Positions 3-57,670 of a stretch of 64,000 nucleotides of DNA are shown here, piece after piece. The stretch comes from Lobosporangium transversale (lineage: Eukaryota). The notes below the pieces were generated by a model. The model saw nothing but the letters and a program-made list of their open reading frames with translations. It did not search any database and was not told the DNA's origin. The stretch is from the NCBI RefSeq assembly GCF_002105155.1, contig NW_019029019.1:248001-312000 (forward strand), given 5' to 3'. Numbering within the stretch: position 1 is the stretch's first letter; the number at the start of each line of letters is the position of its first letter. A program made the translations under genes and the position numbers.

Positions 3-590
3 TCACAACTATCACAACCAAATGATAACCAACAAGCATCAGTTGATAGTAATCAGCAGCCATCCGTCAAAGAGAAAAAGAAAAAGAAAAAGAAAAAGAA
101 AAAAGAGAAAGGGCCAGGTCAGGGGGAATATGATGCTGAATACCTTCATACTCACGTTGCTGATGAAGCAGCATACCCTATCGTCTACAGTAAAAACTGT
201 AGGCAGTCCCACGAAAGAACTATGAAATCCTGGGGACACTTCATCTGCAAAACAGAGGAGTGCGAGGAGAACGAATGGAAATCAGCCATCATTGCCTGCC
301 ATCTGATTTTTTCTAGGTCCAACATTTCCTACAAGGTTACACTTCATGCCCAGAAGTGCAGGCAATGCGAACGCTATGCAGAACCTATTGTGGACCCAGA
401 AGCCTATGCTAGACAGGTGGTTCATGTTTTGGACTTGTGGATGCATCTTAGAGAAAGGGAAGAGCCCACTGGATCTGGTGTCCATACCAGAGGCCCTCAT
501 GATATTGCTCGCTGCCATGGATGCGAAGTAGGTCAGTGCCCATATTCGGCAGGGGAGTTAGGGGCTCGACCATCTAGACAATTTCTTTAG
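3..590 (+). CDS. zf-3CxxC (RTP-like) zinc-binding domain protein, 5'-truncated by window edge
   Basis: ORF 222..590 has the 3CxxC pattern GHFIC..C...W.S / Y.V.LHAQKCRQC...P / GPHD..RCHGC..GQC. The same frame is open back to position 3 and includes a poly-Lys tract and YLHTHV, so the start lies upstream. Confidence 0.85.
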   Translation, partial: SQLSQPNDNQQASVDSNQQPSVKEKKKKKKKKKKEKGPGQGEYDAEYLHTHVADEAAYPIVYSKNCRQSHERTMKSWGHFICKTEECEENEWKSAIIACHLIFSRSNISYKVTLHAQKCRQCERYAEPIVDPEAYARQVVHVLDLWMHLREREEPTGSGVHTRGPHDIARCHGCEVGQCPYSAGELGARPSRQFL

Positions 591-1524
591 TATAAACTAC
601 CCTGAGAATTGAATAAAATATTAAGAAAAGGAAAGACCATTACACTGTTAATTGGGAATGAAAATGATCAGCCTTCTCTAGGACTTATTCAGGGCCCTCA
701 AGCAGCCTTCATTACCGCTTTAGGCACCAATATATCTCTCCTCGTTCCACTTTGTCATGTCTCCTCACCATGTGGAGAGAGAGGGAAAATAATAAAGCAA
801 ACTTCCAAGACTGGAAATATTGTTTGGCATCACAGTAAATTGAGTTTTGACAGAAATTGATATATATACTTGATGCGCAATCAACGCACCATTGATATTT
901 CAATCAATCTTACTCTTTTATTCCTCAGTGGATACTACAGATATATTGTGCCTAGTTCAAATATTTTCTAGTAGTGTTGCTGCATTATTTCTATAACAAA
1001 TGTCCAAGGCTATCAATCCTCTATGGAGATAACAGCAGCGAATATAATGGACCAAAGGATGAGTCGTGGCATGCTTCAAAAGGTACGCTTATTGAATGAA
1101 ATTTGTATCTTTGAAATATTTTAAATGCCGCCTCGATTATCCGAAAAGAAAGCGAGGACACACTATTTCAGTCACCAGAGATAACCGCAGTATTATGTCG
1201 ATACAGTTGTTTTTGTTGAAAGATCTGTTGGTGCTCAGAGAGCACATCTAATCTACCTATGGGCAAAACTATATACAATCACATGCACCTTGATGCATGC
1301 GGTCGTCTGCGTGGATTGTTAAGCGTATTTATATTTCTTGTTTTATATTTATCCTGTTGTACATGTACCGTCTTCAAATTATGCGCATATACACTCCGCA
1401 TTTACTCCCAACACTAGAAATTCATCCAAGTCAAAATGTTGCCAGCCACTTTCCGAATAGCCAATGAATAGTTTGCGGATTCATTGGATATGGTGCTGGT
1501 AGAGAGCTAGGAACATACTAGTCC

Positions 1525-1950
1525 ATCCTAACCGACAAGTGCTTTGGTGTGTTCGGGTGTTTACTTCCCGAAATATATCATTCTCTTAAACCGTCTTTAC
1601 ATGGGGACCTTATGAAGGACGTAGGTCTCCAGAAGTCGTGCTTTGGAGCAGGCTCCATACCAACCCAGGTGCCATATATACGAAGAAGCTATGGGTGATC
1701 CGAAAGGGTTTACTCCAACAGACATGGTAAAATACCCAAGGGCTGCTGCTCTAAAAGAGAAGGTGTATCTCTGCAACAGCATCCTCTTGTATGCAAGCCC
1801 CAAGTATAGCATACAGGCCCAATTTACCCAAGTATAGGTCCTTAATGCACTGCGGCAAGACTAAGGAAGATCTGTTTACCTGAAGCACAAAGTGTTGACC
1901 AATCTTACGGCAGAGATGAACAGAATATATTGCTCCTAGGCTCTCCAGAA
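1525..1950 (+). pseudogene. DUF4238 gene remnant (3' part only)
   Basis: Matches 44500-44950 (ILTDKC.G.F, KEKVYLCNSILL), with internal deletions and frameshifts; 5' half absent. Confidence 0.7.
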
Positions 1951-3079
1951 AGACCTTTACTTCTTCCACTTCTCCTCATAAACAAAGATTGTAGTTGTTA
2001 AGTACAGTTTGGTGAAAATAAAGCAATGGGCCTCTTAGCCAGCGCTAATAAGGAGCCGATATTGAAGCTTGGGGGAGGATGAGTATAGGAATGAGGAGGG
2101 TTAGAATATGGCGACATTTTTATTTGGTTCTCATTTTTAATTTTATTTCTAGCGCATCTCATCTTGAAGGATGCGACTTCTGTATGATGACCAACTCGAT
2201 ACAATAGCAGTTATTCTGTTAAGAAGAAAGGAAGAAGACATGAAAAGACAGCTATCTGTGTGGACCAACTATAGATGGGGGGTAGAAGAAGAAAGAAGTC
2301 TATGAAAGTCCTCGATGGGCAGGGGTGCGGTGCGCCAGATAATAATGCAATATTCTGAAGAGCTTTAACAGCTTCAACCAGTATTTACCACACAATGAGC
2401 ACTGGGTTTAAAAGAACACATGTTTAGCGGTATTTACTTATACCAGCCCCTCCTTGTGTAGAGGATGTGTTGGCGGAACAATGTTTGGTTGTCGATCAAT
2501 GCTTTGTGTGACATGAGCCATATGATAGAAAATGTTTATATTTATTCTTTGATGAATGGTCAATTGATGGGATTAACTATTGTAGAGGAGAGGAGAATGG
2601 GTGTGGGAACATCATATAAGACCGTCCCTCGTCCCAACAATTATTATCGGATCAATATCCTCAGTAATAAAAATCGGGCTCTTGCTGATTATCCCCCGAA
2701 AAAAACGCATCAAAAAGTAGAAAGGGTTTCAAAAAGCAGATTTGGTGTGGAAAAAAGGCTTACATGTACACTGCTATGTTTGCTTGTTATGCAGGTGCTG
2801 TGCTCAGAAATGTGCATTTTTTACTTCGCCATTTTTTCTTTGGACCAATATAACTAAGGATTTTCCGCTGTTACTTCCATCATCTCGCTTGCTCAGCTCT
2901 TCTGGCCTGTTCTCTGTTCTTCATACTGAATCAAGACAATCATCCTTACACTTGCATCAATTCGCATCCTTTTTCAATTGCTTCCTCCATTACTCATCGA
3001 TCATCGTGACTGTTTTTTAAAAACACGCGTTTATTTTATTTGCGCCACTGAACCTGGAATTAGTTTGACATACGTTAAG

Positions 3080-3382: not shown

Positions 3383-6300
3383 ATGGATTTACTATACGAC
3401 ACCCAAAAGTTGCGAATTTTACATGAGAAGGACCAGAAGATCAACTTGAGGAAAGGCACGATAGACACATTTGAAGAATATGGGTATGAATCTGTTGACC
3501 TGTATACCGAAAGGCTAGTAGACATGTGCTCGTACGAATTTCAGATCGAAGCAGCAAAGGCGCTGTTTGGCAAGATTCCAGACGACCACGATATCCGCCA
3601 ACTCAAACGCGTAAAAAATAACGCCGTTCGGGGTCCCATCGATGACGAACTGAATGAAGATGATGGAAAACCAAATGGAGACAGTGGCGAGGTTGACGGG
3701 CCTGACGCAGAGGACTGGGTTCTTACCGGGGAGCCGGAGATGTACAACTATAAAGACATTGTCATAGCTGCAATCACTAAGAGTTTTGGCGACGAGACAG
3801 ACCCCGAGCGGTACATCGGTTACGTGAGCCATATTTCCAAGATCCCACAAAGCGGCCTCCGTAGATATTTTTTTACATTTGACGCGCAAATATCTTCTTC
3901 CCAAGATATTGACGTGTTAATGTGGACGATTGGAAACCTTACATCCTACGAGCGTGTTGTGAATAGCCTTTCCGATAAGGATGCGATGAGGTCGATACCA
4001 AAGCTATTTTTAAAAGCTCCTGTGACAGACATTAGCCCCCTTACAGACGATACTGTAGACATTCCAGATGGTGTGCCCGAGTCGATGAATCAATCGCAAA
4101 AAGTTGCGATATCAAGGGCAATCCAGGAAGATGGGGACAAGGTGGTGCTGATCCAGGGTCCTCCTGGATGCGGTAAATCGACGACTATCGCTGAAATGAT
4201 CCATTTACTTACCTCTCATGACCGAGGTAACACAGGAATGCAGGTTCTGGCGTGTGCACAGACGAACGTTGCTGTGGCGGATCTTGCGTTTAAGTATGTT
4301 ACCACTAAAAAGCCTGCCAATTTTAAGTGTGTTATGGATATGAGGCCACCCAAGATAACCGATAGCCGCAAGAGAGCTGTGCTTGAGCCATTTACAATTA
4401 CCGCCCGATATCACCAAGTTGTCAATGCTGTGTTGCATACCATCATACGCGTCTTTGGGCGTACCCCCACCGCGTGTCACGGGAGCACGACAAGAAATGA
4501 AGTTAGGAGTATTGTGGCCTCCGATTTCAGGAAGTGTATGGAAAGTGGTTTAATCAAGCTACTGCCTCCGAAAGCCTGTAAGCTTCTTATGTCTATGGAG
4601 GCTGCGATCAGCGATTCTGCGCTGCCGTCTACCGATTTGACTCAGGTGAAACGTCTTGTTTCAGGAATGCGCAACGAACTAGAGCTCTTTTTTGAACCCG
4701 TCGAGCTTGAGTCGTTGCTCGAACTTTGCAGTGTTGATCAGCATACCGGCTCGTCGCCACGCTCTAAAACCATACCTATTTACGGGTGGGTGAAGCAAGC
4801 TCTTCTCGACGAAGCGTCTGTCGTATTTTGCACGATTAATATTGGGATATCGTTGACTTTTAAGAGACGCCTGGAAAGACTAGCGTATATCGTTGTCGAT
4901 GAGGCAGCGCAGGCGCTAGAGCCAGATGTGGCTGCACTAATGTGTGTTGATTCGTACTTTCGCCGCCTAATTTTGGTTGGAGACCCAAAGCAGCTTCGAG
5001 GATATTGTGCGTCCAACCGAGGCAAGCGCGAGATGATGGACCGCAGCCTCATGGAGCGCCTCCAGACATACCGGCTGTGCCATTCTACACTCCTCGATGT
5101 GCAATATCGCATGCATCAAGACATCTGCAATTTCGTGTCTCGAACCTTCTACGATAACAGATTGACCTCCGATGCGTCGATTCAAAGCAGGAGAGCTGTT
5201 ACAGCACTAGCACCTATTATGCACGTTATGTTCCTGGGATCTCAGATGGCACAATCGACAATCACGACAACGAGCGTGGTGAATATCGACGAGGCTAGAT
5301 ACATTGTTGCCCATGTATTCAAGGTGTTATTGCAATCCAGGCAGAATCAAGTCCTCTTGACTAATACTGTGACTAAGTCAATCTCTTATGCTGCCGTGAC
5401 GAAAAACACAGAAAAGGTAGAGACGCGACAGCCTGTAGAGGTCGCCAAGATCACTATCGGGATCATATGTATCTACAAGGCACAGGCCAACGTTATACGC
5501 TGTCTAGTCGAGAAGTCTCAAAACGCCTATAAAGGATTTGGAGCCGAAATAGTAGTTAACACCATAGATTCGTTTCAGGGGCAGGAGTGCGACATTATCT
5601 ATGTAGCGCTTACAAGGACTACACAAATTAACACTTTTATGGACAATGCTAATCGCGTTAACGTCGCAATTTCGAGAGCTCGGCACCATCTGATTGTAGT
5701 GGGAGATGCAAAACTTTCGCTGGCAGCCAAACAAGACGCCCCATCATCCTACTGGCATAGCCTGTGTATGGGCAGAAGATCCATGGTTATCGAACCAAAG
5801 TACATCAGGAGCATGCCTCAATACGATGGGCCGGAACGCGTTACTGTTATGAAGGCTGCGGTAATACAAGCAGCGCCGGCCACAATCAAAGAGATCATAG
5901 CTAAGGGACTGGCTGCCACAACTCCCATTTGGACTATCCACTACGAGAGACTCACGATAGACCCGAAAACCCCGCAAGGGATCCATATACTCGAATATGT
6001 CGTGCAAGCACTAGCCAGTGGAGATTTTGACACGGGAAATGGCGGTAGGACAACAAGACCCTTATTCGGTAAAAAACAAAAAGGGGCATCCCTGTTTTTC
6101 GTTACCACAGTGTGTGGGGTAGTGTGCCTTGCGTGGACCGTGAGAGTGCACGGGCAGCGCCAGGCCATTGAGCTTCTTGGCATCGGAGACAAAACATTCG
6201 TTGAAAAGACGGCCTGGCCGTTGCTCCGTCGCGACATCGAAGGGCAACCGGAATGGAAACTCTTTGCGTCTATGAGCCTGTGGTCGTCTGGTATAAGCGT

Positions 6301-9013
6301 AGACCTCTCCAAGGATATGCCAAAAAGTACGTCGTTGCTCTATGTGCCCGCAGATATAGAAATTCCTGTCGACGACGCCTTGGCGGATGTACCAGAGAAT
6401 GGGCACCTTCTGATCGACCACGACCACATTAAAGCCATGTCCTTTATGAGATCCAGCCCCACTATGGTCCTTGGAGGTGGGGGTACTGGCAAGACGGAGT
6501 GCATGCTGGATATGATTGAGCAGCAACTGGACATGGATACAGACCTTGGCAACGTGCAGCTCTATTTGGGAGCGACTGATTCGTTAGCCAACTGGTCGTC
6601 GATGAGACTATTAAAACGGGAGAACATAACGGAGCAAGGCTTTAAGATGGTATCGTTCACCAGTCTCCCATCTCTACTCTCAAAGCTCTACATGTCGAAT
6701 AGCACCATACGCGGGAAGCTCTTTGTGGATCGGGATATCTTTAGATCCGAATATATGGATGCCATGCCTGCAATGGTCCGCAGTATTGGCGCCGATGAGC
6801 TCTACGACGCTATCCACGCGCGCATGGATATAGAGACAGAGAACGGCATTAGTTCTCTTAGGCCAGAGTACAAGACAGCACACAAGGTCTATGAATTGGT
6901 CAAGACATCGCGCGGTCACTTCGACGCTTACGACCTTCACGCACTCGTCGAGCAAGACCCGCAACGATTAGTGGCTATGGCATCGAAGATCGCACGCATC
7001 TACTTAGATGAGGTCCAAGATATATCATGGACAATGTGGTCTGTAATCGAGGTAATGCTGTCTGCACGCACCTCGAGCGTGGTGTGTGCTGGTGATTTCA
7101 CACAGCGACTTACACCAGGGATTTCGGTCAATGGTATAAAAAGCCTCATCTATAAACACCTCCCCAAGAGTATGGAGACCATTAGATTCAAGACAAATTA
7201 TCGATCGGACCCCAGCATTATATCACTCGCAAACCGTATCCAATCGTACACCCACATGAGAGAACACGCAATGGAACCATCTCTCTACCCTCAGGAAAGC
7301 AGCAACTCCGTGACACTGGTAGAGATACAGGACATCGAGCATGAAAATGTAGCCGATGTGTTGCGCTATATCGGAGTTCCGTCCAACAACTATAGAGCTG
7401 CGATCGTCACATCGTCGTCATGGGCACATCGGCTTCGTGAGACTTTGGGTAAATCTCACAATGTCTTTAGTGCTTACGAATGCAAGGGTCTCGAGTTCGA
7501 CCTTGTTGTGTGTTGGGACCTCTTCAACCCAAGCATGGATGTAAAAACATCGACTCTAAGGCGTAACATGGGGGCTGCCACCTTAGATAAGGGCAATATT
7601 GAGGAAGACGAAAACTTTGAGATATACTTGAACCATCTCTACGTAACCGTTACAAGGGCACGCAAGCACCTTATAATGGTCGTTCCATCATGCGATAGAT
7701 CTAGCATTATGGTCAAGGCACTTGGGATTAGCGATATGGTCCATTACAGTGAGGTTCGGGAGCGTGGACCTCTGCCTGAAATTATCATTCCAATAGACGA
7801 GCTCAGCGTGTCTGACGATCTAAGAATGGCGATTGTGATGAGAGAAAGAGGATTACTCCAGCAGGCTCTCAACGTCTTTGAGCAGTACGGCGACGCTGCA
7901 CAAGCAGGGTTTACGAGAGCTCTAATCCATCGAAATGAACACAGGCTTCGCGGGGAAGACCACGAGATCCAGCTTTGTATTTCTGAGTGTTACGGTGTAA
8001 TCGAGGTATTGCAACAGTCGACGGATAGTGTTCTCAAAATCGAGGATGTAAAGCTATTCCTTACCCAGGCACTGGTCGCTGATAAGCAGTATGCTGAAGC
8101 ATGTCTGCTTTACAAGGAATTGGAGATGGAAGATGAACTGGTCGCGTGTCTAATCGAGGCAGTTGAATCAAAGTCTGGAGATGTGGTGCGGCTACGCTAC
8201 TTAATATCCGAAAAAGCTGTAGCTATCTGGGAGCATTTCAAGGACAACAAGAGATATGCAAGATTTGTTGTTGCGTTAATGCTTGTGTTTAAATCTTCGA
8301 CTGTAGACCTAATCCAGTCGATGATCACGCACATTCCATCCAAAGCAGGGCTCACTATGCTGCACAACTCCCTGATAGAGGCCGATAAAAGCGTATCCCC
8401 CATATGGGAAGTATTCCGAAGAAGAAAGTGGCTGCAGGTGGGGTCTGGATCGGAAGAGTCGGAGGAACTGACATTCTTAGAATGGAGCTCATTGCGGCGC
8501 CTCGATGGCCAACACTCCAACGAAGACTTGGTTTACATTATTTCTACTGGTTGCTTGCCAGAATCTCAGTCGTCAATAGCCTGTCTGTTTGTTGGGCCTA
8601 GAAACAACAAGACTACAAAAACCTTGTCGCTCAATATCCAATCGGGTGCTATGCTAAAGGCGTGTCGGTCGCTGGAAATACCTTTGAAGCATGTTTCAAC
8701 GAAGATGAGAGAGCTCTCCTGCCCCCTGACAGATTTTATGGCACTCCATTCCCAAATAAGTGGGGAAGAATCAAGAATGTACCTGCTTGCTGAGGCGTAC
8801 AAGACGCATAAGCTCAAGATGAGGGGTAGCGAGCACCAACTCACTCTCTTTAGATGGTGTGCTAAGATGAGTGGAGGTACGAACATCATCGATATGATCT
8901 GTACCATGCTTAAGGAGGACAGAGATATGTTGCTTGCCATCTACAGCCCAGATAACACCCTAAACGTAACACAGAAAGCACTACTTCAGGTGCTGAACGA
9001 GAGGGATATATAG
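3383..9013 (+). CDS. Dual-helicase protein copy 1 (Upf1/Sen1-like SF1B + UvrD-like SF1A + TPR-like tail; TRANK1-like), 1876 aa
   Basis: Helicase 1 motifs: MNQSQ, IQGPPGCGKS, CAQTNVAV, VVDEAAQ, LVGDPKQL, QYRMH, TIDSFQGQE, RVNVAISRAR. Helicase 2 motifs: GGGGTGKT, YLDEVQD, AGDFTQ, NYRS, KGLEFD, LYVTVTRAR. Confidence 0.93.
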   Translation: MDLLYDTQKLRILHEKDQKINLRKGTIDTFEEYGYESVDLYTERLVDMCSYEFQIEAAKALFGKIPDDHDIRQLKRVKNNAVRGPIDDELNEDDGKPNGDSGEVDGPDAEDWVLTGEPEMYNYKDIVIAAITKSFGDETDPERYIGYVSHISKIPQSGLRRYFFTFDAQISSSQDIDVLMWTIGNLTSYERVVNSLSDKDAMRSIPKLFLKAPVTDISPLTDDTVDIPDGVPESMNQSQKVAISRAIQEDGDKVVLIQGPPGCGKSTTIAEMIHLLTSHDRGNTGMQVLACAQTNVAVADLAFKYVTTKKPANFKCVMDMRPPKITDSRKRAVLEPFTITARYHQVVNAVLHTIIRVFGRTPTACHGSTTRNEVRSIVASDFRKCMESGLIKLLPPKACKLLMSMEAAISDSALPSTDLTQVKRLVSGMRNELELFFEPVELESLLELCSVDQHTGSSPRSKTIPIYGWVKQALLDEASVVFCTINIGISLTFKRRLERLAYIVVDEAAQALEPDVAALMCVDSYFRRLILVGDPKQLRGYCASNRGKREMMDRSLMERLQTYRLCHSTLLDVQYRMHQDICNFVSRTFYDNRLTSDASIQSRRAVTALAPIMHVMFLGSQMAQSTITTTSVVNIDEARYIVAHVFKVLLQSRQNQVLLTNTVTKSISYAAVTKNTEKVETRQPVEVAKITIGIICIYKAQANVIRCLVEKSQNAYKGFGAEIVVNTIDSFQGQECDIIYVALTRTTQINTFMDNANRVNVAISRARHHLIVVGDAKLSLAAKQDAPSSYWHSLCMGRRSMVIEPKYIRSMPQYDGPERVTVMKAAVIQAAPATIKEIIAKGLAATTPIWTIHYERLTIDPKTPQGIHILEYVVQALASGDFDTGNGGRTTRPLFGKKQKGASLFFVTTVCGVVCLAWTVRVHGQRQAIELLGIGDKTFVEKTAWPLLRRDIEGQPEWKLFASMSLWSSGISVDLSKDMPKSTSLLYVPADIEIPVDDALADVPENGHLLIDHDHIKAMSFMRSSPTMVLGGGGTGKTECMLDMIEQQLDMDTDLGNVQLYLGATDSLANWSSMRLLKRENITEQGFKMVSFTSLPSLLSKLYMSNSTIRGKLFVDRDIFRSEYMDAMPAMVRSIGADELYDAIHARMDIETENGISSLRPEYKTAHKVYELVKTSRGHFDAYDLHALVEQDPQRLVAMASKIARIYLDEVQDISWTMWSVIEVMLSARTSSVVCAGDFTQRLTPGISVNGIKSLIYKHLPKSMETIRFKTNYRSDPSIISLANRIQSYTHMREHAMEPSLYPQESSNSVTLVEIQDIEHENVADVLRYIGVPSNNYRAAIVTSSSWAHRLRETLGKSHNVFSAYECKGLEFDLVVCWDLFNPSMDVKTSTLRRNMGAATLDKGNIEEDENFEIYLNHLYVTVTRARKHLIMVVPSCDRSSIMVKALGISDMVHYSEVRERGPLPEIIIPIDELSVSDDLRMAIVMRERGLLQQALNVFEQYGDAAQAGFTRALIHRNEHRLRGEDHEIQLCISECYGVIEVLQQSTDSVLKIEDVKLFLTQALVADKQYAEACLLYKELEMEDELVACLIEAVESKSGDVVRLRYLISEKAVAIWEHFKDNKRYARFVVALMLVFKSSTVDLIQSMITHIPSKAGLTMLHNSLIEADKSVSPIWEVFRRRKWLQVGSGSEESEELTFLEWSSLRRLDGQHSNEDLVYIISTGCLPESQSSIACLFVGPRNNKTTKTLSLNIQSGAMLKACRSLEIPLKHVSTKMRELSCPLTDFMALHSQISGEESRMYLLAEAYKTHKLKMRGSEHQLTLFRWCAKMSGGTNIIDMICTMLKEDRDMLLAIYSPDNTLNVTQKALLQVLNERDI

Positions 9014-11191: not shown

Positions 11192-11780
11192 CAATCTTGA
11201 AGGACTTCTTGGTACACAATATTTCGCGTGTATTTACAAAGATCCCTTGAATCACCTTTGATAAGTACCTTCAAATGCTTGGGGTCTGTACAGCGAGAAA
11301 GAGCCACATAGAGCTGGCCATGACTAAAAACAGACCGTGGGAGGGAGGTATATGCCAACATTCTGAAGAGTTTGTCCCTGAGCCTTATTGATGGTCATGG
11401 CGAAGGCAGGTTTCAAAGGGAAATGGCGCCGCTGGAATATGACTGGAGACGATCTATCATCAGTTGCATTGATATTGATTCGAGGGATGTAATGGATCGC
11501 TCCTTTGAATATTCCCGTCATTACTTCAGCTTCGATGACTTTGTTTCCAAGTTTATGCACAATGAGACGCGTACCGTTACAGAGACCTTCCTTTGGGCTC
11601 AGGTTCCTTATGCGAATGATGGGCTGACCGATCTTTAATTGCAGTATACTGGGAGGGATTCCGGGAGGATTTAAAGAATTAAGAAATTCCACAGTGTATG
11701 TTGCTGCTGCTACTGGGTCGTCAATATCAGGGATGGAATCTTGCCCATGATAGACCTTTGGAATGGTATGACTTGAAAAT
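11192..11780 (-). pseudogene. Helitron PIF1-family helicase C-terminal fragment
   Basis: EFLNSL..PGIPP..L.LK.G, RNL....[31 protein letters not shown]; after a frameshift [11 protein letters not shown] and [10 protein letters not shown]. Confidence 0.9.
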
Positions 11781-12378
11781 ATCTCTGTTGCCCAAGCATT
11801 TCGCAGAGCGTAGGCCATGTATATATGTGTTTCTCTACATTATTATTTTAGAAAACTAACACGATATGCAATGGTCCTCTTGACTTGATTATAGTCATGT
11901 TTCTTAGCACTCATGGCACAAGTTAGATTTGTCTGTAAGGGAAGAGGAGCTAAAGTGGAGAAGGAAGGTTTCTTATAGAAAAAAAGCGCGTTCCATATGA
12001 AATATCAAACATTTCACAGGAGCATTGTCATTGTCATTGCACAGACCATGTTTCTCTATGAAAATTAATTTGTTAAAAAATAAATCTCTTTGTTTTCTAA
12101 CTGTCATGTTTCTGTCATATATTTTTATCATGCCACATGAATGTATCGACACTTGAAGGAATTCATGTTTGAGGTTAAAGCATATGATATGATCAAGGCT
12201 TATAGGTAGTGTTTGAAGGAGCTCAATTGTTGTTTTATTATTATTACTATTATTATTATTATTATTATTATATAAAATAAAATTCTTATTATCATTTTTA
12301 TGCATCAATGGTTCAATGGCTGATGGTAGAAGCAGGCCATGATTGAAGGCTGATTATTTTTTTTTTTCAATGCATCAT

Positions 12379-12633
12379 GATTGAGATGATTGAGATGATT
12401 GAGATGATTGAGATCTGGTTGGTTATTATTTGTAATGTAAAGCCCAAAGTTGCGCTCTCATGATGATCGCTCATAATCATGATTGAGGTCACATGATGAT
12501 TGGGTCACATGATTGAGGTCCGATGATTGAAGTATGTATGCTCATTTCCTGAAAGGCACATGAAAATGGAATGACATGAAATGAAAATGGAATGACATGA
12601 AATGAAATGAAATGAAATGGAATGGAATGGAAT
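12379..12633. repeat. Short tandem repeats inside Helitron (GATTGAGAT x4; ATGAA/ATGGA runs)
   Basis: Directly visible. Confidence 0.7.
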
Positions 12634-12727
12634 TTATTTTAGATTTATGGACGGACGTATCATAGAGCAAGAATTATGAAACTATGAAATGAAATATATC
12701 ATATAATAGAGCAAGATCTATGAAATA

Positions 12728-15068
12728 GAGTCCTCGCCAAAAAGTCATAAACTGGATATATTTTACAATACTCAATTTGAATTAAAAATTTGAAAAATAA
12801 AAATTTACGTACGAAGACAAAAATGCATATATTTTTTGAATAGAAGGAATGAATTAGATGCATGGCCACCAAACCAATTCAATCTTCGTTTTTAATTAGA
12901 AATATTAGAATTTGCGAGAAATGGGCAACATCATTCTCAATCTCATTCTCGATCTCATCCTCATTGTCAACCTACTTTATTCGCAATCTTCAGATAGTAA
13001 AATGTCTTTCCCTTTTGATATCAATAACCTACTCTCATACAACGATCTTGGTGGTTGGTATAGCGAAGGAAATATCGACCAAATGATTTCAGGCACACCC
13101 TTCACTCCGCCTCGAAGATCGCCACAACTGCCCACTGAAGCCGATCTCTCCCCTATTAGGTCTCCTACCGAATATCAATGGATTACTCCTCCCAGAAACG
13201 AGCCAAGGAGTTCTACCTCATTAGAGCAATTCGGTGAGCGTCCCAATACCCTCGATTTAAATCCATTCTTGTCAGACAAACAAACTGGAGAGAGAAAAAA
13301 GGCATTTACACGCAGTAAAGCGTCCGTTACTAAAGACGAATACGCGATAATAGCTCATACATATAATGCTATAATGAATGCGCCACCAGCAGTCCAAGAC
13401 TGGTTTAAGAAGACAGACAACAGAGCAATGGACCTTTCGATTCTGATGGGTGTAGGGAGAAACACTTGTGTGGCAGCAATTAAATATGCACAAACAGGCA
13501 TCGTCGAAATGACAGGGCGAGGAAGAACTGGACGCCCTAAAAAAGAAGCGGACAAGGATTTAAACTCGAAGGTGCTGAATATCATAGTTGAATCAAACAA
13601 GAGCGGGACTCCTAATTCTGCGGGTTTAATTGCAAACCAACTGAAAGAAGACTTTGAAATCGACAGATCAGCAAGATCAATCACTCGCGACCTCCGTAAA
13701 ATGGGACTGTATTGGGGCAAAGGGATCCGACAGAACTTTTTGCACGACTCCAAGGAGAATATTGCCTTCCGAGCTACTTACCTGAAGCGCCGTCTTAAGA
13801 ATTTAAAACTAGTAGACGGCAGTTGGGTGCCTAGGACTCCAGAGGTCTTCTTGGACGAGTCTTACTGCCACATTGACCATGCTGCAGCAAGACGTTGGGT
13901 GCAAAGTGGCGGTGGTGTCATTAACGATGCAGGAAGGAAATCAATCATGGTTATATTTGCAGCCTTCATTGTATATTATGATGAAGCTGCTAAAAAGGTT
14001 GAAGGCAAATTCGTTAATGATAGCGTGTATGTTTGGCCATCAAAGGGACCAAAGCCTCAATCAAAAAAAGGCCAAGAGCAGGAGGCTGAACTGTGGGATG
14101 ACGTACCTGAGGAGATCAGGAATGCAGGGGTCGTGGCAACAGATCACGATTATCATGGAAACTTCAACGCTAGTTTGTTCGATAGTATCTTTAAGCGACT
14201 TTGTGAGAATCTCAATAAGATGGGACTTGGCCCTTGTAAAATCCATCTTGATGGCGCTTCATATCACTTTCACAAGAAAAACAGGGAACCAACCAAGAGC
14301 GACACTGTGAAAACTATCAAAGAGTGGCTCACGGGCAAGGAGATTGTTATTCCAACAAGGGAAAATGGAAAAGCACTGAACAAAAACGAGCTTATGGAAT
14401 TGGTTAACGCTCTTCCTGATGAGTCGTATTTCTCTATCAGTAAAATAGCCCAGGAGAATGGTGGACATGAAATCCTCAAGACTCCACCCTACCATTGCGA
14501 GCTACAACCTATTGAGAAGATCTGGGCAGTTGTGAAAAACATAATTGCCTCGAGAGCAATGGTGACAATGACATCCATCTTGCTGAAAAAAGGCTACTAA
14601 GCTTGTTTTCCCAGATTCCGTGTAAAGTCTTTTACTCTGTATGGAAGAAGTCTGTGAAAATTGGCATGAGATACTATAACGAGAGGAGTCATGCACAGGA
14701 AGAAATAGTCGAAGAGGTTTATCAAGAGGTTTTTGATGAAAACGAGCCTATTGTGGACCTTAGTGACACTTTCAAAGTCGACAATAGTGAGTGGGATGCA
14801 GAACTCATTAGAGTACTAAATCAAGAGCGAGCTGAAGCTGTTACCCTAGGCCCTGAGATAGTGGATCTTACGCTAGATGCTGGAAGCATGTTTAATGTGA
14901 TAGAGGATAGCGAGTCTGAGGACGAGCCTCTTATCAATCGAAAACGCTCTCGTAAAAATTAAAATTTTGAGTTTGTACGTATTTTTCCTGCGTCTAAAAG
15001 TGGAAGTATTCTATTCAATTTAAAAGCCTGAAAAATATATCCAGTTTATGACTTTTTGGCGAGGACTC
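12728..15068 (+). mobile_element. IS630/Tc1/mariner transposon, Sailor-like (DD87E)
   Basis: Perfect 37-bp TIRs GAGTCCTCGCCAAAAAGTCATAAACTGGATATATTTT (12728-12764 and 15032-15068), TA on both flanks, internal transposase. Confidence 0.93.
12921..14962 (+). CDS. DDE transposase, probable frameshift near 14555
   Basis: VFLDES, IHLDGASYH, PPYHCELQPIEKIW. An alternative frame from ~14555 (SNGDNDIHLAEKRLLSLFSQIP..W.K) runs into ORF 14603..14962. Start codon uncertain. Confidence 0.82.
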
Positions 15069-15890: not shown

Positions 15891-17260
15891 AGCGAAAAAG
15901 TGGTCGTTTATCACCCGAGGAAGAAGATTCCTAATCACTACAATGGCTAATTAAGCACTAGAACCAGGCTCGGCCCTTTGGTTGTTTGACGGCAAAGTAT
16001 GTGTAGCCACTTCAGCGCTTTTGAATCTACTATTAGAGAATCTTCCAGTGCAAGCTCAGCTTTAAATGCCATCACTATAAGGACTACTGTATCTCTCAGA
16101 ATTACCATTGCATTCCCCGGAGTCACAGGAGCCACCGCTGGCTTATGAGACGTTACCCCAAAGGGTAGAGCTGCGTCGTCGGGCTGTGCAAAAATGTAGG
16201 GATATGGCTGCGGAAGGAGTGAAAGAGGCCTTATGGTAGTGGAAAAAGTGAAGCTGCGAAGCCAACATCTCTCTAATAGTTTGGAAGAGAATGAAGCATT
16301 GCGGACAGGGGAAAAACCTTTTGCACAAGGGCCACTGGAGTGCTGACTGTTCTCATTCAGGTAAAGAACCCTCCACAACGCTTACCACTAGTAGCACATA
16401 GATTATTAAAGCTTCCTTCTTTTGCACAAGAACCGTTGGGGCACTGGCTGTTCTCGTTCAGTCTTTTGTATTGTGTTGTTATTTATTTGCGTTCAAGAAG
16501 CATTTTGTCTATCTGTCGCTGGGAATGACTTCACAAACCACCAAAAAGGCCAAGTTTCTCTATTCAATTAGCCCTAAATTTCCCAACAGTGTTAATCCTG
16601 AGAAAAAAAAGGGTGTGTTGCAATGCGCTTGCCATACATGATGTTGTTGTCGAAGTTGAACCGCGTTTGACGGAACAAATTGTTACGAAGATCTTCCCCA
16701 GCACCCTTTTTGGATCATATGTGCGGCTGAGTGTGAGGTCCGGAAAAGGGGTTATCGCTATCATCGCCAGCGCATTCCATAGGTTCATCCCAATCATCAG
16801 CTGGCTGACACTATTAAATCATTGGTAGACGATATTGAACAGCCTGTTTTCTGGAAGAGCCACGTTTACATCGGCATGTGGACCATCAGCCACAGAACGC
16901 CCACTCTCTTCAAAAGGAGAAAGAGAAGGGATAGGAAAAGGTTAAGGGCACCGCAAAATAGAGTTCGCGCCATCACTAGGAGACGCCGGCAATATTGTTT
17001 CTAAGGGGGCTGACTGCAAGCCAAGCGCACTCGACTCATAAAAAACTTTCATACTTTGACTGAGCTACGATGCTTGGGCAAAGTCCTTGGATGGTATGAA
17101 CCCCATCAAGGTGGTTCCAAAAATGCCCCATCGAGAGGCTGTTGGTGTACCAGTCTTGGATCTGGCAGAGGTAGTGGCAAAGCTGGGCTACGGCCGGGAA
17201 CGAACGACTGTTGGGTTGAAGTAGGAGTGGCAACAGCTGTTCACCGACAGATAAATCAGT

Positions 17261-17295
<35 letters not shown>

Positions 17296-17421
17296 GATTT
17301 AAGCTCATGTCAGCTTTGAAAAAGAAAAGGGGAAGAGGAAAAGGGACCTGCATAGCCTTTGGCATAGGCTCCGAAAAGCCGGTGCGGTATCTTTCCATAC
17401 GCCTGCACCTGATGGTTAGAC

Positions 17422-17478
17422 CAGTGTCCATATTCGGCGGAAGAGTTAGGTGTAGAGCCATCTAAACAATTTCTTTAG
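17422..17478 (+). pseudogene. 3' tail remnant of the 3CxxC gene
   Basis: QCPYSAEELGVEPSKQFL* vs QCPYSAGELGARPSRQFL* at 534-590; the following ~900 bp is homologous to 590-1500. Confidence 0.8.
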
Positions 17479-18337
17479 TATAAACTGCCCTGGGAACTGA
17501 ATAAAATATTAAGGAATGGCCATTACACTGCTGATTGGGAACAAAAATGATCAGCATGCTCTAGGACTTATTTAATAGCCTCACTAGCTCTTATAAACAC
17601 TTTAGACACCAACGTACCTCTCTCCGCTTCACTTTGTCACGTCTCCTCACCATGTGGAGAGGAAAAGGAAATAATATTGTGAACTTCCAGGACCGGAAAT
17701 ATTGTTTGACATCACAGTAAAGCGAGCTTTGATAGAGGGTGATATACTTGATGCGTAGCCAACGCACTATTGCCATCTCGATCAACCTTACTCTTTTCTT
17801 CCTCAGTGGGTGCTATAGGGTAAATAGTGACCATATTGTGCCTAGTCCAATTTATTTGCAGTACTACTACTGCATTATTCCGCCATAAATGTCTAAGGCT
17901 ATCAATCCTCTATGGAGATTTAAATGACACACATAACGGACCTAAGAGTGAATCGTGGCATGCTGCAAAAGGTGTGCGTATTTTAGGTCTATGAATGGAT
18001 TTGTATCTTTGAAATATGTTTAATACCACCTCTATTATCTGAAAAGAGAGCGAAGGCACACTATTTCAGTCGCCTGTGCTACCGCAGCACTATGTCGATA
18101 TTTGTTCCTGGTGAAGAGTCTTTTGGTATTAAGAGAGTCCACCTAATCTACGGTCAAGGTTGCATACAACCACATGCATCTTGATGCAGGTAGTTGCTTG
18201 CGTGCATTGTAAGGCGTATTTTATCTTGCCATCCTGTTGTAACGCCTTCAAATTATGTGCATATATTCTGAACACTAGAAGTTCATCCCAGTGTTGCCGG
18301 CCGCTTTTCGATTAAGCAATGGGTAGTATGCGAGCAA

Positions 18338-19530
18338 TTGCCTCAGGTAACTTCACAGAAGTGCCTTTTTCAAAAGGCCCAGTGGGAAGCAAGGGAAATA
18401 GTGGGGGGGATAGCGTGGGAAGCAGCAGGAAAGGTAACAGAAGAAAAAGCAGTGGGGTCAGCAAAAGAGATAGCAGAGAAGGCGATAGAGAAGACGGTCA
18501 TGAAGCCAAGGAGCAAATCCTAATATTGATTCCCTATTAATGTGTATTGAGCGTTGGAGAAAACAATCGCAGAGCGACGTTAGCAGAGTGTATGGTCTTC
18601 AGAACATGTATCAGGACATTGCTGAAGTCGATAGTATGAGGTTTGAGAAGGAGCTTGCCAAGTTGGAGTGCACCTCTGCGACGTTCATTCATAAGATCCG
18701 ATCTGGCGAAGAACTACTGCTGACACGGACTCAACTAGCAGACTTCAAGAGGTTCCTAGCCATCATGACATACAGGAGCGAGCGCCGGAGGGAACAGTAT
18801 TACGAGTGTCGATTTGATATTATGACACTTCTATCGATTCGAAAACACATGTCCCAAAACAATATTGACAGAGTTCAAGACGTATGGTTCGAGAATCTCA
18901 AATGAATCATCAAGACCCCTCACGACGAAATCATTAAGGAGAGCTCAGCTATCGATCCGAAAGGCGTCAAGACTCCCATGGATACTATGTTTGCTTTGAG
19001 CAAATATAAAGGACCTATTTACGTTGCAGAACTTATGGACTATTATAACTTAGTGTGCAACTACGTGTGTGTCTGGCAAGCGGAAGAAGGGCCTGAATTT
19101 ATCCTAACCGACAAGTGCTCTGTTGGGTTCGAAGGTGAGGATGCTATCCACTTCCAAAGCTTCTATGTTGTGTCTCCGAAATATATGGTCGTTCTTGTGA
19201 ACCGTCTTTACATGTGGGACCTTATGAAGACCGTGGGTCTCCGGAAGTCGTGGTCTGGAGGCGAGCTCCATGCCAATCCAGTTGTCATTAATACGAAAAA
19301 GCTTGTGAGAGGTGCGAAAGACTTCACTCCGACAGACGTGTTCAAATTCAAAAGGATTGTCGCCCCAAAAGAGAAGGTATATCTCGGCAGCAGCTCATTT
19401 TGGGTGGAGGTACATAACATAAAAGTCCTATATCTCCATTAACAGGTCCTTAAGATGCTGCGATAAGGCTAAGGAATCTTTATATACTAACAAATTTGAT
19501 TGCCGTTTCATGAAGCGCGAAACATTAGGA
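18338..19530 (+). pseudogene. DUF4238 pseudogene
   Basis: RVYGLQNMYQD, FEKELAKLE, LTRTQLADFKRFLAIMTYRS, EFILTDKC..FEG, VVSPK. Start region deleted; TGG>TGA stop at ~18903. Confidence 0.8.
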
Positions 19531-23249: not shown

Positions 23250-26200
23250 ATGGATTTACTATACGACACCCAAAAGTTGCAAGCTTTACTGAAGAAGGAC
23301 CAGGATATCAACTTGAGGAATGGCAAGGTGGACACCTTTAAGAGGGATGGATACCAGTCTGTTAGTCTGTACACCAAAAGGCTTGTAGAAATGTGTTCGT
23401 ACGAATTTCAGATCGAAGCAGCAAAGGCGCTGTTTGGCAAGATTCCAGACGACCGCAAGCACTGCCGTCTCGAACGCGTAAAAAATAAAGCCTATCGAGG
23501 CTTCACCGATGGCGAATTAAATGAAGACGATGGGGAACTTAATGAAGACAGTGACGATGGGGAACTTAATGAAGATAGTGGCGATGCTGACAGACCTAAC
23601 GTAGAGGGCTGGATCCTTGTTGAAGAGCCAGAGATATACAACCACAACGACATTGTCGTAGCTGTAATCACTAAGAGCTTTGGCGATGAAACAGGCTCCA
23701 AGCGATACATCGGCTGCTTGGAGCACATCTACAGGGACTGGCAAACTGGATCGAATGAATATACTTTTACATTTGACGCGAAAATATCATCTTCCAAGGA
23801 AATTGACGTGCTGATGTGGACGATTGGGAACCTTACAACCTACGAGCGTATTATGAATAGTCTCTCTAATGTGGATAAGATGAGCTGCATACCAAAGGTG
23901 CTTCTGAGAGGCCCTGCAACAGGCATTAGCTCCCTTATAGACGATACTCAACACACACAAACTGATGTACCCGAGTCGATGAACACAGCGCAGAAGGTTG
24001 CGATAACAAGGGCAACCCAGGGAGGCCCGCAGGATGTGGTGCTGGTTCAGGGCCCTCCTGGATGTGGTAAATCGACGGTAATCGTCGAAATGGTGCGTTT
24101 ACTCACCCCCCGTGTCCAGTCTAGCGCGAGAGTGCAGGTCCTGGTGTGTGCACAGACGAATGTTGCTGTGGTGGATCTTGCCTACAAGTATATCACCACT
24201 AACGAGCCTAAAAGCAAGTTTGAGTATGTTATGGTTATGAGACCACCCAAGATCATCGATAGCCACAAGAGAACAGTGCTCGAGCCATTTACAGTTACCG
24301 CTCGATATCACCAAGTTGTCAATGCTGTGTTGCACACCATCATACGCGTCTTTGGGTACACCCCCTTCGCATGTCATGGGAGCTCGGCAAGAGATGAAGT
24401 TAAGAGTATTGTAGCCACCGATTTCACGAGCTTTGTGGAAAGTGGTTTAATCAAGCTACTGCCTATGCGCGCCCGCGAATTCCTTTCTGGGCTGCCGTCT
24501 GCCGATTCGGCCCAGATGAAGCCTCTGATTTTTGGAATGCGCAACGAACTAGGGCCCTTTTTTAGGCGCGTTGACTTCAAATCATTGCTCGAACTGTGCG
24601 GTACTGGCCAGGGTACTGACATTCCACGCTCTAAACCCTTACCCATTTATGGATGGCTGAAACAAGCTCTTCTTCGTGCAGCTTCGGTCGCGTTTTGCAC
24701 AATTAATGTTGGGATATCGGCGACTTTTTGGGGAACCATGACCAACCTAAAGTATATCGTTGTCGACGAGGCAGCGCAGGCACTAGAGCCGGATGTGACT
24801 GCACTAATGTGCGTTGATTCGAGCTTTAGTCGCCTAATTTTGGTTGGAGATCCAATGCAGCTCCCAGGATATTGTACATCCAACCAAGGCAAGCGTGAGA
24901 TGATGGACCGCAGCCTCATGGAGCGTCTCCAGACATACCGGCTGTGCCATTCGACACTCCTCGATGTACAGTATCGCATGCATCAAGACATCTGTGCTTT
25001 CGTGTCCCGAACCTTCTACGATAACAGATTGACCTCCGACAAATCGATCCACGACAGGAACCCTGTTACAACACTACCAGCAGTTATGCACGTTATGTTC
25101 CTGGGATCCCAGGCAAGCCAGTCGAGAATCACGACAACGAGCGTGGTGAATATCGACGAGGCTAGATACATTGTTGCCCATGTATTCAGTGTGCTGTTGT
25201 CGTCCAGGCAAAAGCAAGCTCCTTTGACTAATCCTGTGACTAAATCAAGCACGTTTGATAAGATGGCGGTGACACTTCCGCAAAAGGTAGAGGCGCGACA
25301 GCCTGCAGAGGCCCCCACGACCACCATTGGGATCATATGTATCTACAAGCCGCAAGCCAACGTTATACAGTATCTAGTCGACAGAATGCTGTCCCAAGGA
25401 GCCTATAAAGGACTTGGATTTAACATAGTCGTTAACACTATAGATTCATTCCAGGGGCAGGAGTGCGACATTATCTATGTGGCACTTACAAGAACTACAC
25501 AAGTTAACGATTTTATGGGCGATCCTAACCGTGTTAACGTCGCAATTTCGAGAGCTCGGCATCATCTAATTGTAGTGGGAGACGTGAGTCTTTCGCTAAC
25601 AGACAAACAAGGCGCATCATTATCTTACTGGCATAGCCTGTGTGTGGACAAGAGCTCAATGATTATCGAACAAAAGTACATCAAGAACGTACCTCCGTAC
25701 GAAGGACCAGAGAGTGTTACTACTATGAGGACTGCGGCAATGCCAGCAGCGCCGGCCACAATCAAAAAGCTCATAGCTAGGGGACTGAATGCCACAACTT
25801 CTATTTGGACCATCCACTACGAGAGACTTATGATAGACCCGAAAACTCCGCAAGGAATCCATATACTCGAATATGTCGTGCAAGCACTAGCCAGTGGAGA
25901 TTTTGACACGGGCAATGGTGGTAGAACAACAAGGCCTTTATTCCGCAGCAAACAAAAGGGGGCAGCTCTATTTTTCGTTACCAGAGTGTGTGATAAAGTG
26001 TGCCTTGCGTGGACCGTGATAGTGCACAGGCAGCGTCAGGCCATTGAACTCTTTGGCATTGGAGACAAAACATTCGTCGAGAAGAAGGTTTGGCCATCGC
26101 TCCGTCGCGACAACGAAAGACAACCGGAATGGGAGCTCTCTGCGTCTATGAGCCTGTGGTCGTCCGGTACAAGCGTAGACCTCTCCAAGGATATGCCAAA

Positions 26201-30404: not shown

Positions 30405-30584
30405 TGATACCGACCGAGGCGGCAGGCATGGGTAGCACGTAACCCGGCGCTTCGAGGCAAGGGTAGATTGCTTACCACCACCAGAGTTCCAGAGAAGACC
30501 TGAGACGATATCAAGGCCTATATCGATACTCAGAGTTGCCGTCGAGTATTCTTAAATGACTTTTTCGGCAATATTCACAGAGAT
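30405..30584 (+). pseudogene. RecQ-like fragment (truncated copy)
   Basis: Homologous to 15330-15510. Confidence 0.55.
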
Positions 30585-31660
30585 AGCAGAGAAGGCGATA
30601 AAGAAGGCGGTCATAAAACCAAGGAGCAAAATCCCATCAGTGATTTCCCTATTTATATGCCCTATTAATGTGTATCGAGCGTTGGAGAAAACAATCGCAA
30701 AGAGCGACGTTAGCAGAGTGTATGGTCTTCAGAACATGTATCAGGACATTGCTGAAGTGGATGACAATATGAGGTTTGAGAGGGAGCTTGCCGGGTTTGA
30801 GTGCACCTTTGCGGACGTTTATTCATAAGATCCGATTTGGCAGAGAACTACTGCTGACGTGGACTCAACTAGTAGATTTCAAGAGGTTCCTAGCCATCAT
30901 GACATACAGGAGCGAGCGCCGGAGGGAACAGTATTACGAGTGTCGATTTGACACTTCTATCGATTCGAAAACACATGTCCCAAAACAATATTGACAGAGT
31001 TCAAGACGTATGGTTCGAGAATCTCAAATGGATCATCAAGACCCCTTACGACGAAATCATTAAGGAGAGCTCAGCTATCGAGCCAAAAGTATCAAGACTC
31101 CCATGGATACTATGTTTGCTTTGAGCAAATATAAAGGACCTATTCATGTCCCAGAACTTATAGGCTATTACCACCTAGTGTGGAACTACGTGTTTGTTTG
31201 GCAAGTGGAAGAAGACTCTAACTGACAAGTGCTTTGGTGCGTTCGAAGATGAGAATGCTATTCACTTCCACAACTTCTATGTTGTGTCTCCGAAATATAT
31301 AGTCATCCTTGTGAACTGTCTTTACATGTGGGACCTTATAAAGACCGTGGGTCTCCGGAAGTCGTGGTCTGGAGGCGAGCTTCATGCCAATTCAGTTGTC
31401 ATCTATACAAAAAAGTCTATGAGAGGCGCGGAAGACTTTACTCCAACAGACGTATTCAAATACAAAAGGATTGTCGTCCCAAAAGAGAAGGTATATCTCG
31501 GCAACAGTATCATTTTGGGTGGAGGTACATAACATACAAGTTCAATATCTCCATATACAAATCCTTAAGATATTACGATAAGGCTAAGGGATCTTTATAT
31601 ACTCACAAATTTGATTGCCGTTACATAAAGCGCGAAGTATTAGAATATGACGACATTTTA
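30579..31660 (+). pseudogene. DUF4238 pseudogene
   Basis: Homologous to 18466-19530; multiple frameshifts; 5' end deleted. Confidence 0.8.
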
Positions 31661-41088: not shown

Positions 41089-42244
41089 TACCATTGCATT
41101 CGGAGTCACAGGAGCCACCGCTGGCTTATGAGACGTTACCCCAAAGGGTAGAGCTGCGTCGTCGGGCTGTGCAAAAATGTAAGGATATGGCTGCGGAATG
41201 AGTGGAAAGAGGCCTTATGGTAGTGAAAAAAGTGAAGCTGCGAAGCCAACATCTCTCTAATAGTTTGGAAGAGAATGAAGCATTGCGGACAGGGGAAAAA
41301 CCTTTTGCACAAGGGCCACTGGAGTGCTGACTGTTCTCATTCAGGTAAAGAACCCTCCACAACGCTTACCACTAGTAGCACATAGATTATTAAAGCTTCC
41401 TTCTTTTGCACAAGAACCGTTGGGGCACTGGCTGTTCTCGTTCAGTCTTTTGTATTGTGTTGTTATTTATTTGCGTTCAAGAAGCATTTTGTCTATCTGT
41501 CGCTGGGAATGACTTCACAAACCACCAAAAAGGCCAAGTTTCTCTATTCAATTAGCCCTAAATTTCCCAACAGTGTTAATCCTGAGAAAAAAAAGGGTGT
41601 GTTGCAATGCGCTTGCCATACATGATGTTGTTGTCGAAGTTGAACCGCGTTTGACGGAACAAATTGTTACGAAGATCTTCCCCAGCACCCTTTTTGGATC
41701 ATATGTGCGGCTGAGTGTGAGGTCCGGAAAAGGGGTTATCGCTATCATCGCCAGCGCATTCCATAGGTTCATCCCAATCATCAGCTGGCTGACACTATTA
41801 AATCATTGGTAGACGATATTGAACAGCCTGTTTTCTGGAAGAGCCACGTTTACATCGGCATGTGGACCATCAGCCACAGAACGCCCACTCTCTTCAAAAG
41901 GAGAAAGAGAAGGGATAGGAAAAGGTTAAGGGCACCGCAAAATAGAGTTCGCGCCATCACTAGGAGACGCCGGCAATATTGTTTCTAAGGGGGCTGACTG
42001 CAAGCCAAGCGCACTCGACTCATAAAAAACTTTCATACTTTGACTGAGCTACGATGCTTGGGCAAAGTCCTTGGATGGTATGAACCCCATCAAGGTGGTT
42101 CCAAAAATGCCCCATCGAGAGGCTGTTGGTGTACCAGTCTTGGATCTGGCAGAGGTAGTGGCAAAGCTGGGCTACGGCCGGGAACGAACGACTGTTGGGT
42201 TGAAGTAGGAGTGGCAACAGCTGTTCACCGACAGATAAATCAGT

Positions 42245-42279
<35 letters not shown>

Positions 42280-42405
42280 GATTTAAGCTCATGTCAGCTT
42301 TGAAAAAGAAAAGGGGAAGAGGAAAAGGGACCTGCATAGCCTTTGGCATAGGCTCCGAAAAGCCGGTGCGGTATCTTTCCATACGCCTGCACCTGATGGT
42401 TAGAC

Positions 42406-42462
42406 CAGTGTCCATATTCGGCGGAAGAGTTAGGTGTAGAGCCATCTAAACAATTTCTTTAG
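42406..42462 (+). pseudogene. 3' tail remnant of the 3CxxC gene (second copy)
   Basis: Identical to 17422-17478. Confidence 0.8.
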
Positions 42463-48578: not shown

Positions 48579-48643
48579 GGAGCGGACCCACCTGTCGTCC
48601 GTGAGGAGCCTCCAAGCCCTCGAGTAGAGGTGCAGACGGCCCC

Positions 48644-57212: not shown

Positions 57213-57670
57213 GTCCCAAAAAATATTGACAGAGTTCAAAGCGTGTGGTTCGAGAACCTCAAATGAATCATCAAGACCTTCACGAAGAAATCATTAAGGG
57301 AGGCTCAAAAATTGATTTAAAAAATACCCTGGCCCCCATGAATTATAAGTTTACTTTGAGCAAATATAAAGGACCTATTCACGTCCCAGAAATTAGGAGG
57401 CGAACTCCATGCCAATCCAGCTGTCATCTATACGAAAAAGCTTATGAGAGGCGCGGAAGACTTTACTCCAACAGACGTGTTCAAATACAAAAGGATTGTC
57501 GTCCCAAAAGAGAAGGTATATCTCGGCGGCAGTTTCATTTTGGGTGGAGGTACATAACATACATGTACAGGTCCTTGAGATACTACGATAAGACTAAGGA
57601 ATCTTTATATACTCACAAATTTGGTTGCCGTTTCATGAAGCGCGAAGTATTAGAATATGACGACATTTTA
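57213..57670 (+). pseudogene. DUF4238 remnant
   Basis: NIDRVQSVWFENLK*, SKYKGPIHVPE, FTPTDVFKYKR; internal deletions. Confidence 0.75.

Follow-up and report, generated by a model that had tools for sequence, protein, structure and literature searches.

The genes considered here have their closest described counterparts in bacterial and animal systems. In the P2-hotspot system of Rousset et al. (2022), a single DUF4238 gene protects E. coli against phage T7; the available part of the source gives its molecular function as unknown and describes a system that needs no partner (PMC9122126). RTP4 binds viral RNA through a 3CxxC zinc finger (PMC8172065), and ZAR1 binds maternal mRNA through the same domain, with no immune role in the available part of its source (PMC12799850), so that the domain implies RNA binding rather than immunity. 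Fungal defence islands are stated as an open hypothesis in the accessible portion of PMC10197012. Here we analyse a 64,000-nt stretch of DNA from the soil fungus Lobosporangium transversale (contig NW_019029019.1, positions 248,001 to 312,000 of the forward strand; hereafter, the window). An earlier note, which was right that RTP4 carries the 3CxxC domain and that a single-gene bacterial DUF4238 system exists, had read into it an amplified unit coupling three defence functions: zf-3CxxC, DUF4238 and a helicase. Tandem arrays that evolve by birth and death hold intact, diversified copies alongside hitch-hiking pseudogenes, and we find the window best read, with a probability of about 0.65, as such an array of five helicases in which the DUF4238 remnants and zf-3CxxC tails are hitch-hiking passengers. 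The locus resembles known arrays in its intact diversified helicases, decayed neighbours, mosaic units and transposon insertions; it differs in that the amplified gene is an unstudied double helicase of 1,870 residues and the passenger comes from an anti-phage family.

The five helicase genes lie in tandem on the plus strand, and tblastn with the full-length paralogue P0005 places a DUF4238 remnant 5' of every one, just as the earlier note had stated (Table 1). A Pfam scan of 160 open reading frames (ORFs) from the window finds the same module order in all five large ORFs, with a Upf1-like superfamily 1 (SF1) module first and a UvrD-like module second; both P-loops, both DE motifs and the later SF1 motifs are present in each copy, and no frame is closed. 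Among the nine old helicase pairs, the ratio of nonsynonymous to synonymous divergence (dN/dS) is 0.30-0.37 at dS 0.36-0.41, and for the twin pair 1/3 it is 0.20 at dS 0.022. The helicases are thus under purifying selection, their N-terminal and SF1B parts changing faster (dN 0.15-0.29) than the UvrD part (0.05-0.09). Helicases 1 and 3 have the same DNA sequence throughout the SF1B module and linker (3383-5750 vs 35xxx) but differ at both ends (dS 0.03-0.04), a pattern that suggests recent gene conversion.

The order of AAA_11/AAA_12 followed by UvrD likens these proteins to fusions of Upf1/SEN1-like SF1 and UvrD-like modules (plant-type P-loop proteins), and an Atlas cluster of eukaryotic proteins with the same domain set scores 0.94; for the window helicases, however, full-length relatives were recovered in only three species, namely L. 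transversale itself, Mortierella sp. AM989 (BGX27_002528 on a 46.5-kb contig, 73%) and Lunasporangiospora selenospora (BGW38_004837 on a 17-kb contig, 43%), from 43 matches among 7984 scored candidates. The L. selenospora orthologue P0016 lacks the second Walker A motif, which is kept in all five window copies and in the AM989 orthologue. The helicases may be TRANK1-like, and the linker between their modules (5870-6322, residues 830-980, and its counterparts in the other copies) may be a RelE-type domain like that of such proteins; no confirmation of this linker assignment came from Pfam, PDB sequences or the Atlas. Profile matches to MkoA (E 2e-61) and GajB (E 5e-13) recall the Mokosh and Gabija systems, but they cover generic helicase cores only, NCBIfam scores fall far below the cut-offs, and no nuclease partner of the MkoB or GajA type was identified. 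To judge by domain content alone, this is probably an enzyme of nucleic-acid surveillance that acts on its own, and its role may lie in defence.

In contrast to the helicases, DUF4238 is intact in none of the five units, each copy being broken by stops, frameshifts or deletions. Membership of the family is secure: Pfam places PF14022 at 18504, 43485, 43947 and 44179, and two window fragments (40.6 and 32.3 bits) as well as P0005 (81 bits, E 1.3e-22) exceed the 27-bit cut-off. The fungal copies therefore share their Pfam family with the P2-hotspot protein, but the fungal clade is very distant from the bacterial one, the window copies are pseudogenes, and not one of the five is the intact gene that single-gene anti-phage activity calls for. 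The window fragments have no PADLOC match.

Three further DUF4238 proteins (P0066, P0005 and P0007) are encoded on the same 394,655-bp scaffold outside the window. Accession order places P0066 probably upstream, at most four genes from the zf-3CxxC gene, and P0005 and P0007 probably downstream. Contig ends suggest that there is one more. Taken together, these positions and contig ends indicate that the array extends past the window on both sides, and the mere 62% identity of P0066 to P0005 indicates that DUF4238 has long been expanding here.

The zinc finger behaves differently from both other genes. The ORF at the window's left edge matches PF13695 (Zn_ribbon_3CxxC) above its cut-off, with E 1.7e-10 and 41.8 bits over profile positions 3-99 of 100 (ORF residues 77-176), and the full protein, P0001, has 272 residues and starts 77 codons before the window; both non-helicase domains named by the earlier note are accordingly recovered by Pfam. 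That note had also listed 3CxxC tails at 534, 17422 and 42406. The entry at 534 is no separate tail but the closing stretch of the only complete gene. The other two, at 17422 and 42406, match the 3' end of that gene by tblastn (E 9e-5) and by blastn (84.5% over 58 nt), and each is followed by a spacer of about 0.9 kb with 72-73% identity, which makes them true homologues rather than chance matches. Each nevertheless spans just the last 18 codons, begins past the Pfam domain, holds one cysteine and scores as no PF13695 member. Within the window, the domain-coding nucleotides 3-533 have no other blastn match; the 300 nt 5' of 17422 are unrelated to the zf-3CxxC gene (alignment score 41, against 49 +/- 11 for 200 shuffles); and blastn finds neither tail nor spacer in units 3 and 5. 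Because both tails sit inside one duplicated block (2193 identities, 42 mismatches and 7 gap positions between 16103-18340 and 41089-43327), they record a single event. The recurring order described earlier thus holds for DUF4238 and helicase in all five units, and a zf-3CxxC domain is present in one.

A search for relatives of the zinc-finger protein returned two matches among 13 candidates, both from L. transversale; the paralogue, BCR41DRAFT_392710, lies on another scaffold, and the same search gave no second intact copy on the window's scaffold. The protein passes the PF13695 cut-off, and RTP4 and ZAR1, in the available parts of their sources (PMC8172065, PMC12799850), both bind RNA by that domain. 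It differs from these animal proteins in that its only returned relatives are L. transversale paralogues, and it may be as close to ZAR1 as to RTP4. That ZAR1 also carries 3CxxC undoes the reading of this domain as specific to defence. Nor are fungi known to have interferon.

Table 1. Features of the window and DUF4238 genes elsewhere on its scaffold (window coordinates; aa, amino acids).
Feature	Position	Strand	Description
zf-3CxxC gene, 3' 195 codons	3..590	+	Pfam PF13695; P0001 100% identical
zf-3CxxC-to-DUF4238 spacer, unit 1	591..1520		homologous to 17479-18332 and 42463-43361; blastn 73% and 72%
DUF4238 remnant 1	1468..1936	+	residues ~272-446 of P0005 only (C-terminal 40%); frameshifts, stops; tblastn
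Helicase 1	3383..9013	+	1876 aa, uninterrupted; Upf1-like SF1 module (AAA_11/AAA_12) and UvrD-like module; Pfam, motifs, dN/dS
Transposon debris	11327..14962		Pif1 2B piece (- strand) and DDE_3 transposase (+ strand); Pfam
Duplicated 2.2-kb block	16103..18340 = 41089..43327		97.8% identity; carries zf-3CxxC tail and spacer
zf-3CxxC tail, unit 2	17422..17478	+	last 18 codons and stop, outside Pfam domain
DUF4238 remnant 2	18340..19530	+	lacks residues 1-33 (conserved N-terminal motif); frameshifts, stops; database model P0004 (ORZ07534)
Helicase 2	23250..28856	+	1868 aa, uninterrupted
DUF4238 remnant 3	30579..31642	+	residues ~76-433; several frameshifts, stops; no zf-3CxxC tail upstream
Helicase 3	32897..38530	+	1877 aa, uninterrupted; forms the young pair with helicase 1 (dS 0.022)
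zf-3CxxC tail, unit 4	42406..42462	+	second copy of 18-codon tail, in duplicate of block 16103-18340
DUF4238 remnant 4	43647..44953	+	spans residues 1-446; frameshifts, stops; database model P0006 (ORZ07539)
Retrotransposon with inverted ends	45500..49745	-	reverse transcriptase, Dam-like piece; in the spacer that separates DUF4238 remnant 4 from helicase 4
Helicase 4	50665..56262	+	1865 aa, uninterrupted
DUF4238 remnant 5	57222..57652	+	residues ~209-266 and 340-433; internal deletion, frameshifts; no zf-3CxxC tail upstream
Helicase 5	58891..64000	+	open frame continuing past window end
P0066			BCR41DRAFT_399671 = ORZ07527; 440 aa, full-length DUF4238
P0005			BCR41DRAFT_360177 = ORZ07547; 446 aa, full-length DUF4238
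P0007			BCR41DRAFT_388904 = ORZ07551; 342 aa, DUF4238 without N-terminal motif

Comparison of the spacers orders these events. The oldest spacers between DUF4238 and helicase are 73-75% identical between units, and since the zf-3CxxC-to-DUF4238 spacer, at 72-73%, is equally old, the order zf-3CxxC, DUF4238, helicase was already in place when duplication began; here the ancestral arrangement proposed by the earlier note is borne out. The repeated unit is the DUF4238 remnant, its spacer and the helicase. It excludes the zinc finger, as the zf-3CxxC domain occurs once, the tails lie outside it, and units 3 and 5 have none; the first copy may hold the whole zinc-finger gene or begin in its last codons, and the data fit either. 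The DUF4238 remnants differ by dS 0-0.22, as measured on short segments of 45-143 codons, whereas their helicases differ by dS 0.36-0.41, and the spacer of unit 1 is 89-92% like that of unit 4, although helicase 1 twins helicase 3. Such discordant kinship among remnants, spacers and helicases indicates that the units are mosaics.

Sequencing-run contigs agree with this layout. One contig of 1843 nt, present in runs X1 and X3, covers 119-1919 without a difference. Among the matches listed from three DNA runs, the tail and spacer occur together only in the three window copies, while the remaining DUF4238 5' ends in these rows lose similarity some 40 nt or less from the start codon; the rows examined are a part of the total, with 188 pieces and 26 loose ends beyond them. 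Run X7, with a word share of 0.00 and changes almost entirely C>T and G>A, was left out. A further repeated block (15147-16127, 30211-30584 and 39302-40275) precedes the DUF4238 remnants in three units and has a weak match to the RecQ zinc-binding domain (E 5e-4, below the cut-off).

As a birth-and-death array, the locus would have arisen from the ancestral zf-3CxxC-DUF4238-helicase order by unequal crossing-over and partial re-duplication. Selection would have kept and diversified the helicases, and surplus DUF4238 copies would have decayed, their role, we propose, being filled by the full-length copies that lie elsewhere on the scaffold. The zinc finger would either never have been inside the amplified unit or have been lost from it at once.

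Several observations weigh against this account. A whole copy of each family is kept at the locus or on its scaffold (for DUF4238, as positioned by accession order), and three defence-linked families at one transposon-rich locus are what a defence island is expected to look like. Some DUF4238 pairs have dN below dS, which implies that these copies were functional when duplicated. Contigs of run X5, which is RNA by guess, cover the zf-3CxxC gene as well as helicases 1/3 and 2, and their DUF4238 letters match a copy outside the window rather than the remnants; they speak at best for presence, not for level or co-regulation. These contigs have little or no cover at the spacer 668-1334 and at the tail and spacer 42328-43611, which the DNA runs do cover, a gap that is in itself no evidence. 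Finally, the species lists of DUF4238 and of full-length helicases show no overlap outside L. transversale, but this mismatch carries little weight: 10 of 149 representatives are named, clustering hides members, and the searches were limited by word and length.

One rival explanation is a looser kind of fungal defence locus, in which three separately acting immunity-type families, forming no single machine, share a fast-turning, transposon-rich region. This explanation stays tenable since the scaffold retains a complete gene from each family, and it would account for the at least eight DUF4238 copies (five remnants and three outside the window) and at least five diversified helicases found there, for the long expansion of DUF4238 and for the faster change of the helicase N-terminal and SF1B parts. 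It also has a parallel in bacteria. Of 401 sampled genomes of one phylum, 30 have PF14022 matches. In the 20 bacterial DUF4238 loci whose neighbourhoods we read (4 kb on each side, 139 ORFs), four have restriction-modification, CBASS (cyclic-oligonucleotide-based anti-phage signalling) or PADLOC candidate neighbours and two have SF2-type helicases, so that bacterial DUF4238 sits in defence regions with changing neighbours. Fungal defence islands, moreover, have already been proposed (PMC10197012, in its accessible portion). On the other side, the literature, at the level of paper titles and listings, yielded no defence function for any fungal member of the three families; the PADLOC matches of the helicases are to generic SF1 cores; Pfam finds no NLR, HET or gasdermin family among the window ORFs; and the case comes from one species only. 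We therefore consider a loose defence locus possible, if rather unlikely.

A stricter version supposes an ancestral three-gene module in which foreign RNA is bound by the 3CxxC protein and unwound by the helicase, with DUF4238 as effector. It gains from the old spacer homology behind the ancestral order, from the one whole copy of each gene left on the scaffold, and from what the available parts of the sources say of its members, that the RTP4 finger binds viral RNA (PMC8172065) and that DUF4238 alone protects E. coli against T7 (PMC9122126). The same sources cut the other way, however, with the bacterial protein acting as a single gene and a ZAR1 domain to which no immune role is given (PMC12799850). 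No unit of the window has two or more working members adjacent, except zf-3CxxC and helicase 1 across a dead DUF4238. Linkage elsewhere does not help: none of 149 DUF4238 homologues matches the helicase or zf-3CxxC profile, so no fusion is seen among them; the 59 longest contain no other Pfam family; and neither an SF1 helicase of this kind nor zf-3CxxC stands beside any of the 20 bacterial loci. Viral contigs hold no relative of the helicase, DUF4238 or zf-3CxxC alignments, and prokaryote contigs no relative of the fungal DUF4238 alignment; with P0005 as tblastn query, phage records give nothing at E<=1. A metagenome scan with the helicase alignment gave 78 loci, none with DUF4238, zf-3CxxC or a second helicase module, a weak negative given that all 78 are generic SF1 loci and none an orthologue. 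The paper listings show nothing on this locus or on linkage of the three families, most subscription papers lying outside the search. The species lists do not match either, and we judge a working three-gene module very improbable. The claim that an amplified unit couples three functions is not supported, as the zinc finger was not amplified, the window DUF4238 copies are all dead and no other genome reached shows the linkage; a three-gene defence island as such is neither proven nor refuted.

Blocks of 95-98% identity and abundant transposon debris might point to an artefact of assembly or to cargo carried by a single mobile element. This reading is most improbable, given that most helicase pairs lie near dS 0.37, that separate-run contigs (one run of which may be the window's source) reproduce the zf-3CxxC-spacer-DUF4238 junction without differences, and that the unit has neither shared element ends nor its own transposase and is interrupted by transposons at different places.

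Those transposon pieces break the spacers at different places among the units. The retrotransposon in unit 4 has a strong RVT_1 match in Pfam (E 1.7e-31) and an inverted match between 45534-45665 and 49752-49620, and its flanks are collinear with unit 1. It contains three long overlapping minus-strand frames with an uninterrupted reverse transcriptase, and is presumably DIRS-like. Downstream of helicase 1, a Pif1 2B fragment at 11327-11839, which we take to be Helitron-like, is followed by a DDE_3 transposase at 12909-14962 with a frameshift near 14580.

The DUF4238 family itself extends well beyond this locus. Searches returned 594 representatives at E<=0.001, the named ones from Mortierellaceae; relatives are named from 14 other taxa of that family, AM989 and L. 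selenospora not among them. In a quick tree, the three L. transversale proteins form one clade (Shimodaira-Hasegawa approximate likelihood-ratio support, SH-aLRT, 99) inside Mortierellaceae and far from six bacterial proteins. On these sequences, DUF4238 appears to be an old fungal family expanded locally, and recent transfer shows no sign in the quick tree. The 800-residue model P0065 of Gryganskiella cystojenkinii has two DUF4238 domains in tandem, which hints at tandem duplication of DUF4238 in another Mortierellaceae species.

A structure model of P0066 (m8a7dcd4addb6, built from 105 sequences) reached a predicted local distance difference test (pLDDT) score of 88 and a predicted template modelling (pTM) score of 0.85, the 440 residues having been folded whole despite exceeding the advised size; an earlier DUF4238 model had pLDDT 48.5. 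The fold has no clear PDB match, with no Foldseek match at E<=0.001 and a best VIA Z of 5.0. Among viral models its one match at E<=0.001 is a DUF4238 protein of Peduoviridae phage Smp131 (E 9.8e-4, TM 0.26/0.37), a pairing for which hhalign of the fungal alignment was not significant; as a query against prokaryote contigs, the Smp131 protein gave one 16-residue match. Its gene (Smp_43, L079:30939-31835) is unannotated and lies directly after the integrase, beside an SRAP gene, in this P2-like phage. The fungal proteins share a conserved His-rich N-terminal motif and near-invariant E132 and E139, which are candidate active-site residues. We had taken DUF4238 to be perhaps an HNH-like nuclease, an idea that neither fold nor profile searches confirmed: its one profile match, to TasH (E 0.11), lies in a 50-residue segment apart from the conserved N-terminal motif.

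If the locus is a birth-and-death array, the process behind it is ordinary and only the genes are unusual; it also warns that gene order repeated within a tandem array counts as a single observation rather than five. DUF4238, familiar from bacteria as an anti-phage family of unknown chemistry, is large in fungi as well, and its confidently predicted fold matched no solved structure. Fungal defence islands are a published and untested idea, as far as the accessible portion of PMC10197012 goes, and the locus offers a cheap synteny test of it. Were the locus such an island after all, an unlikely outcome in our view, a transposon-rich part of an early-diverging fungal genome would be keeping together an RTP4-type RNA-binding zinc finger, intact DUF4238 copies and diversifying helicases, the helicases serving as rapidly evolving sensors; it would then supply a first concrete example of the islands proposed for fungi, along with a eukaryotic DUF4238 candidate.

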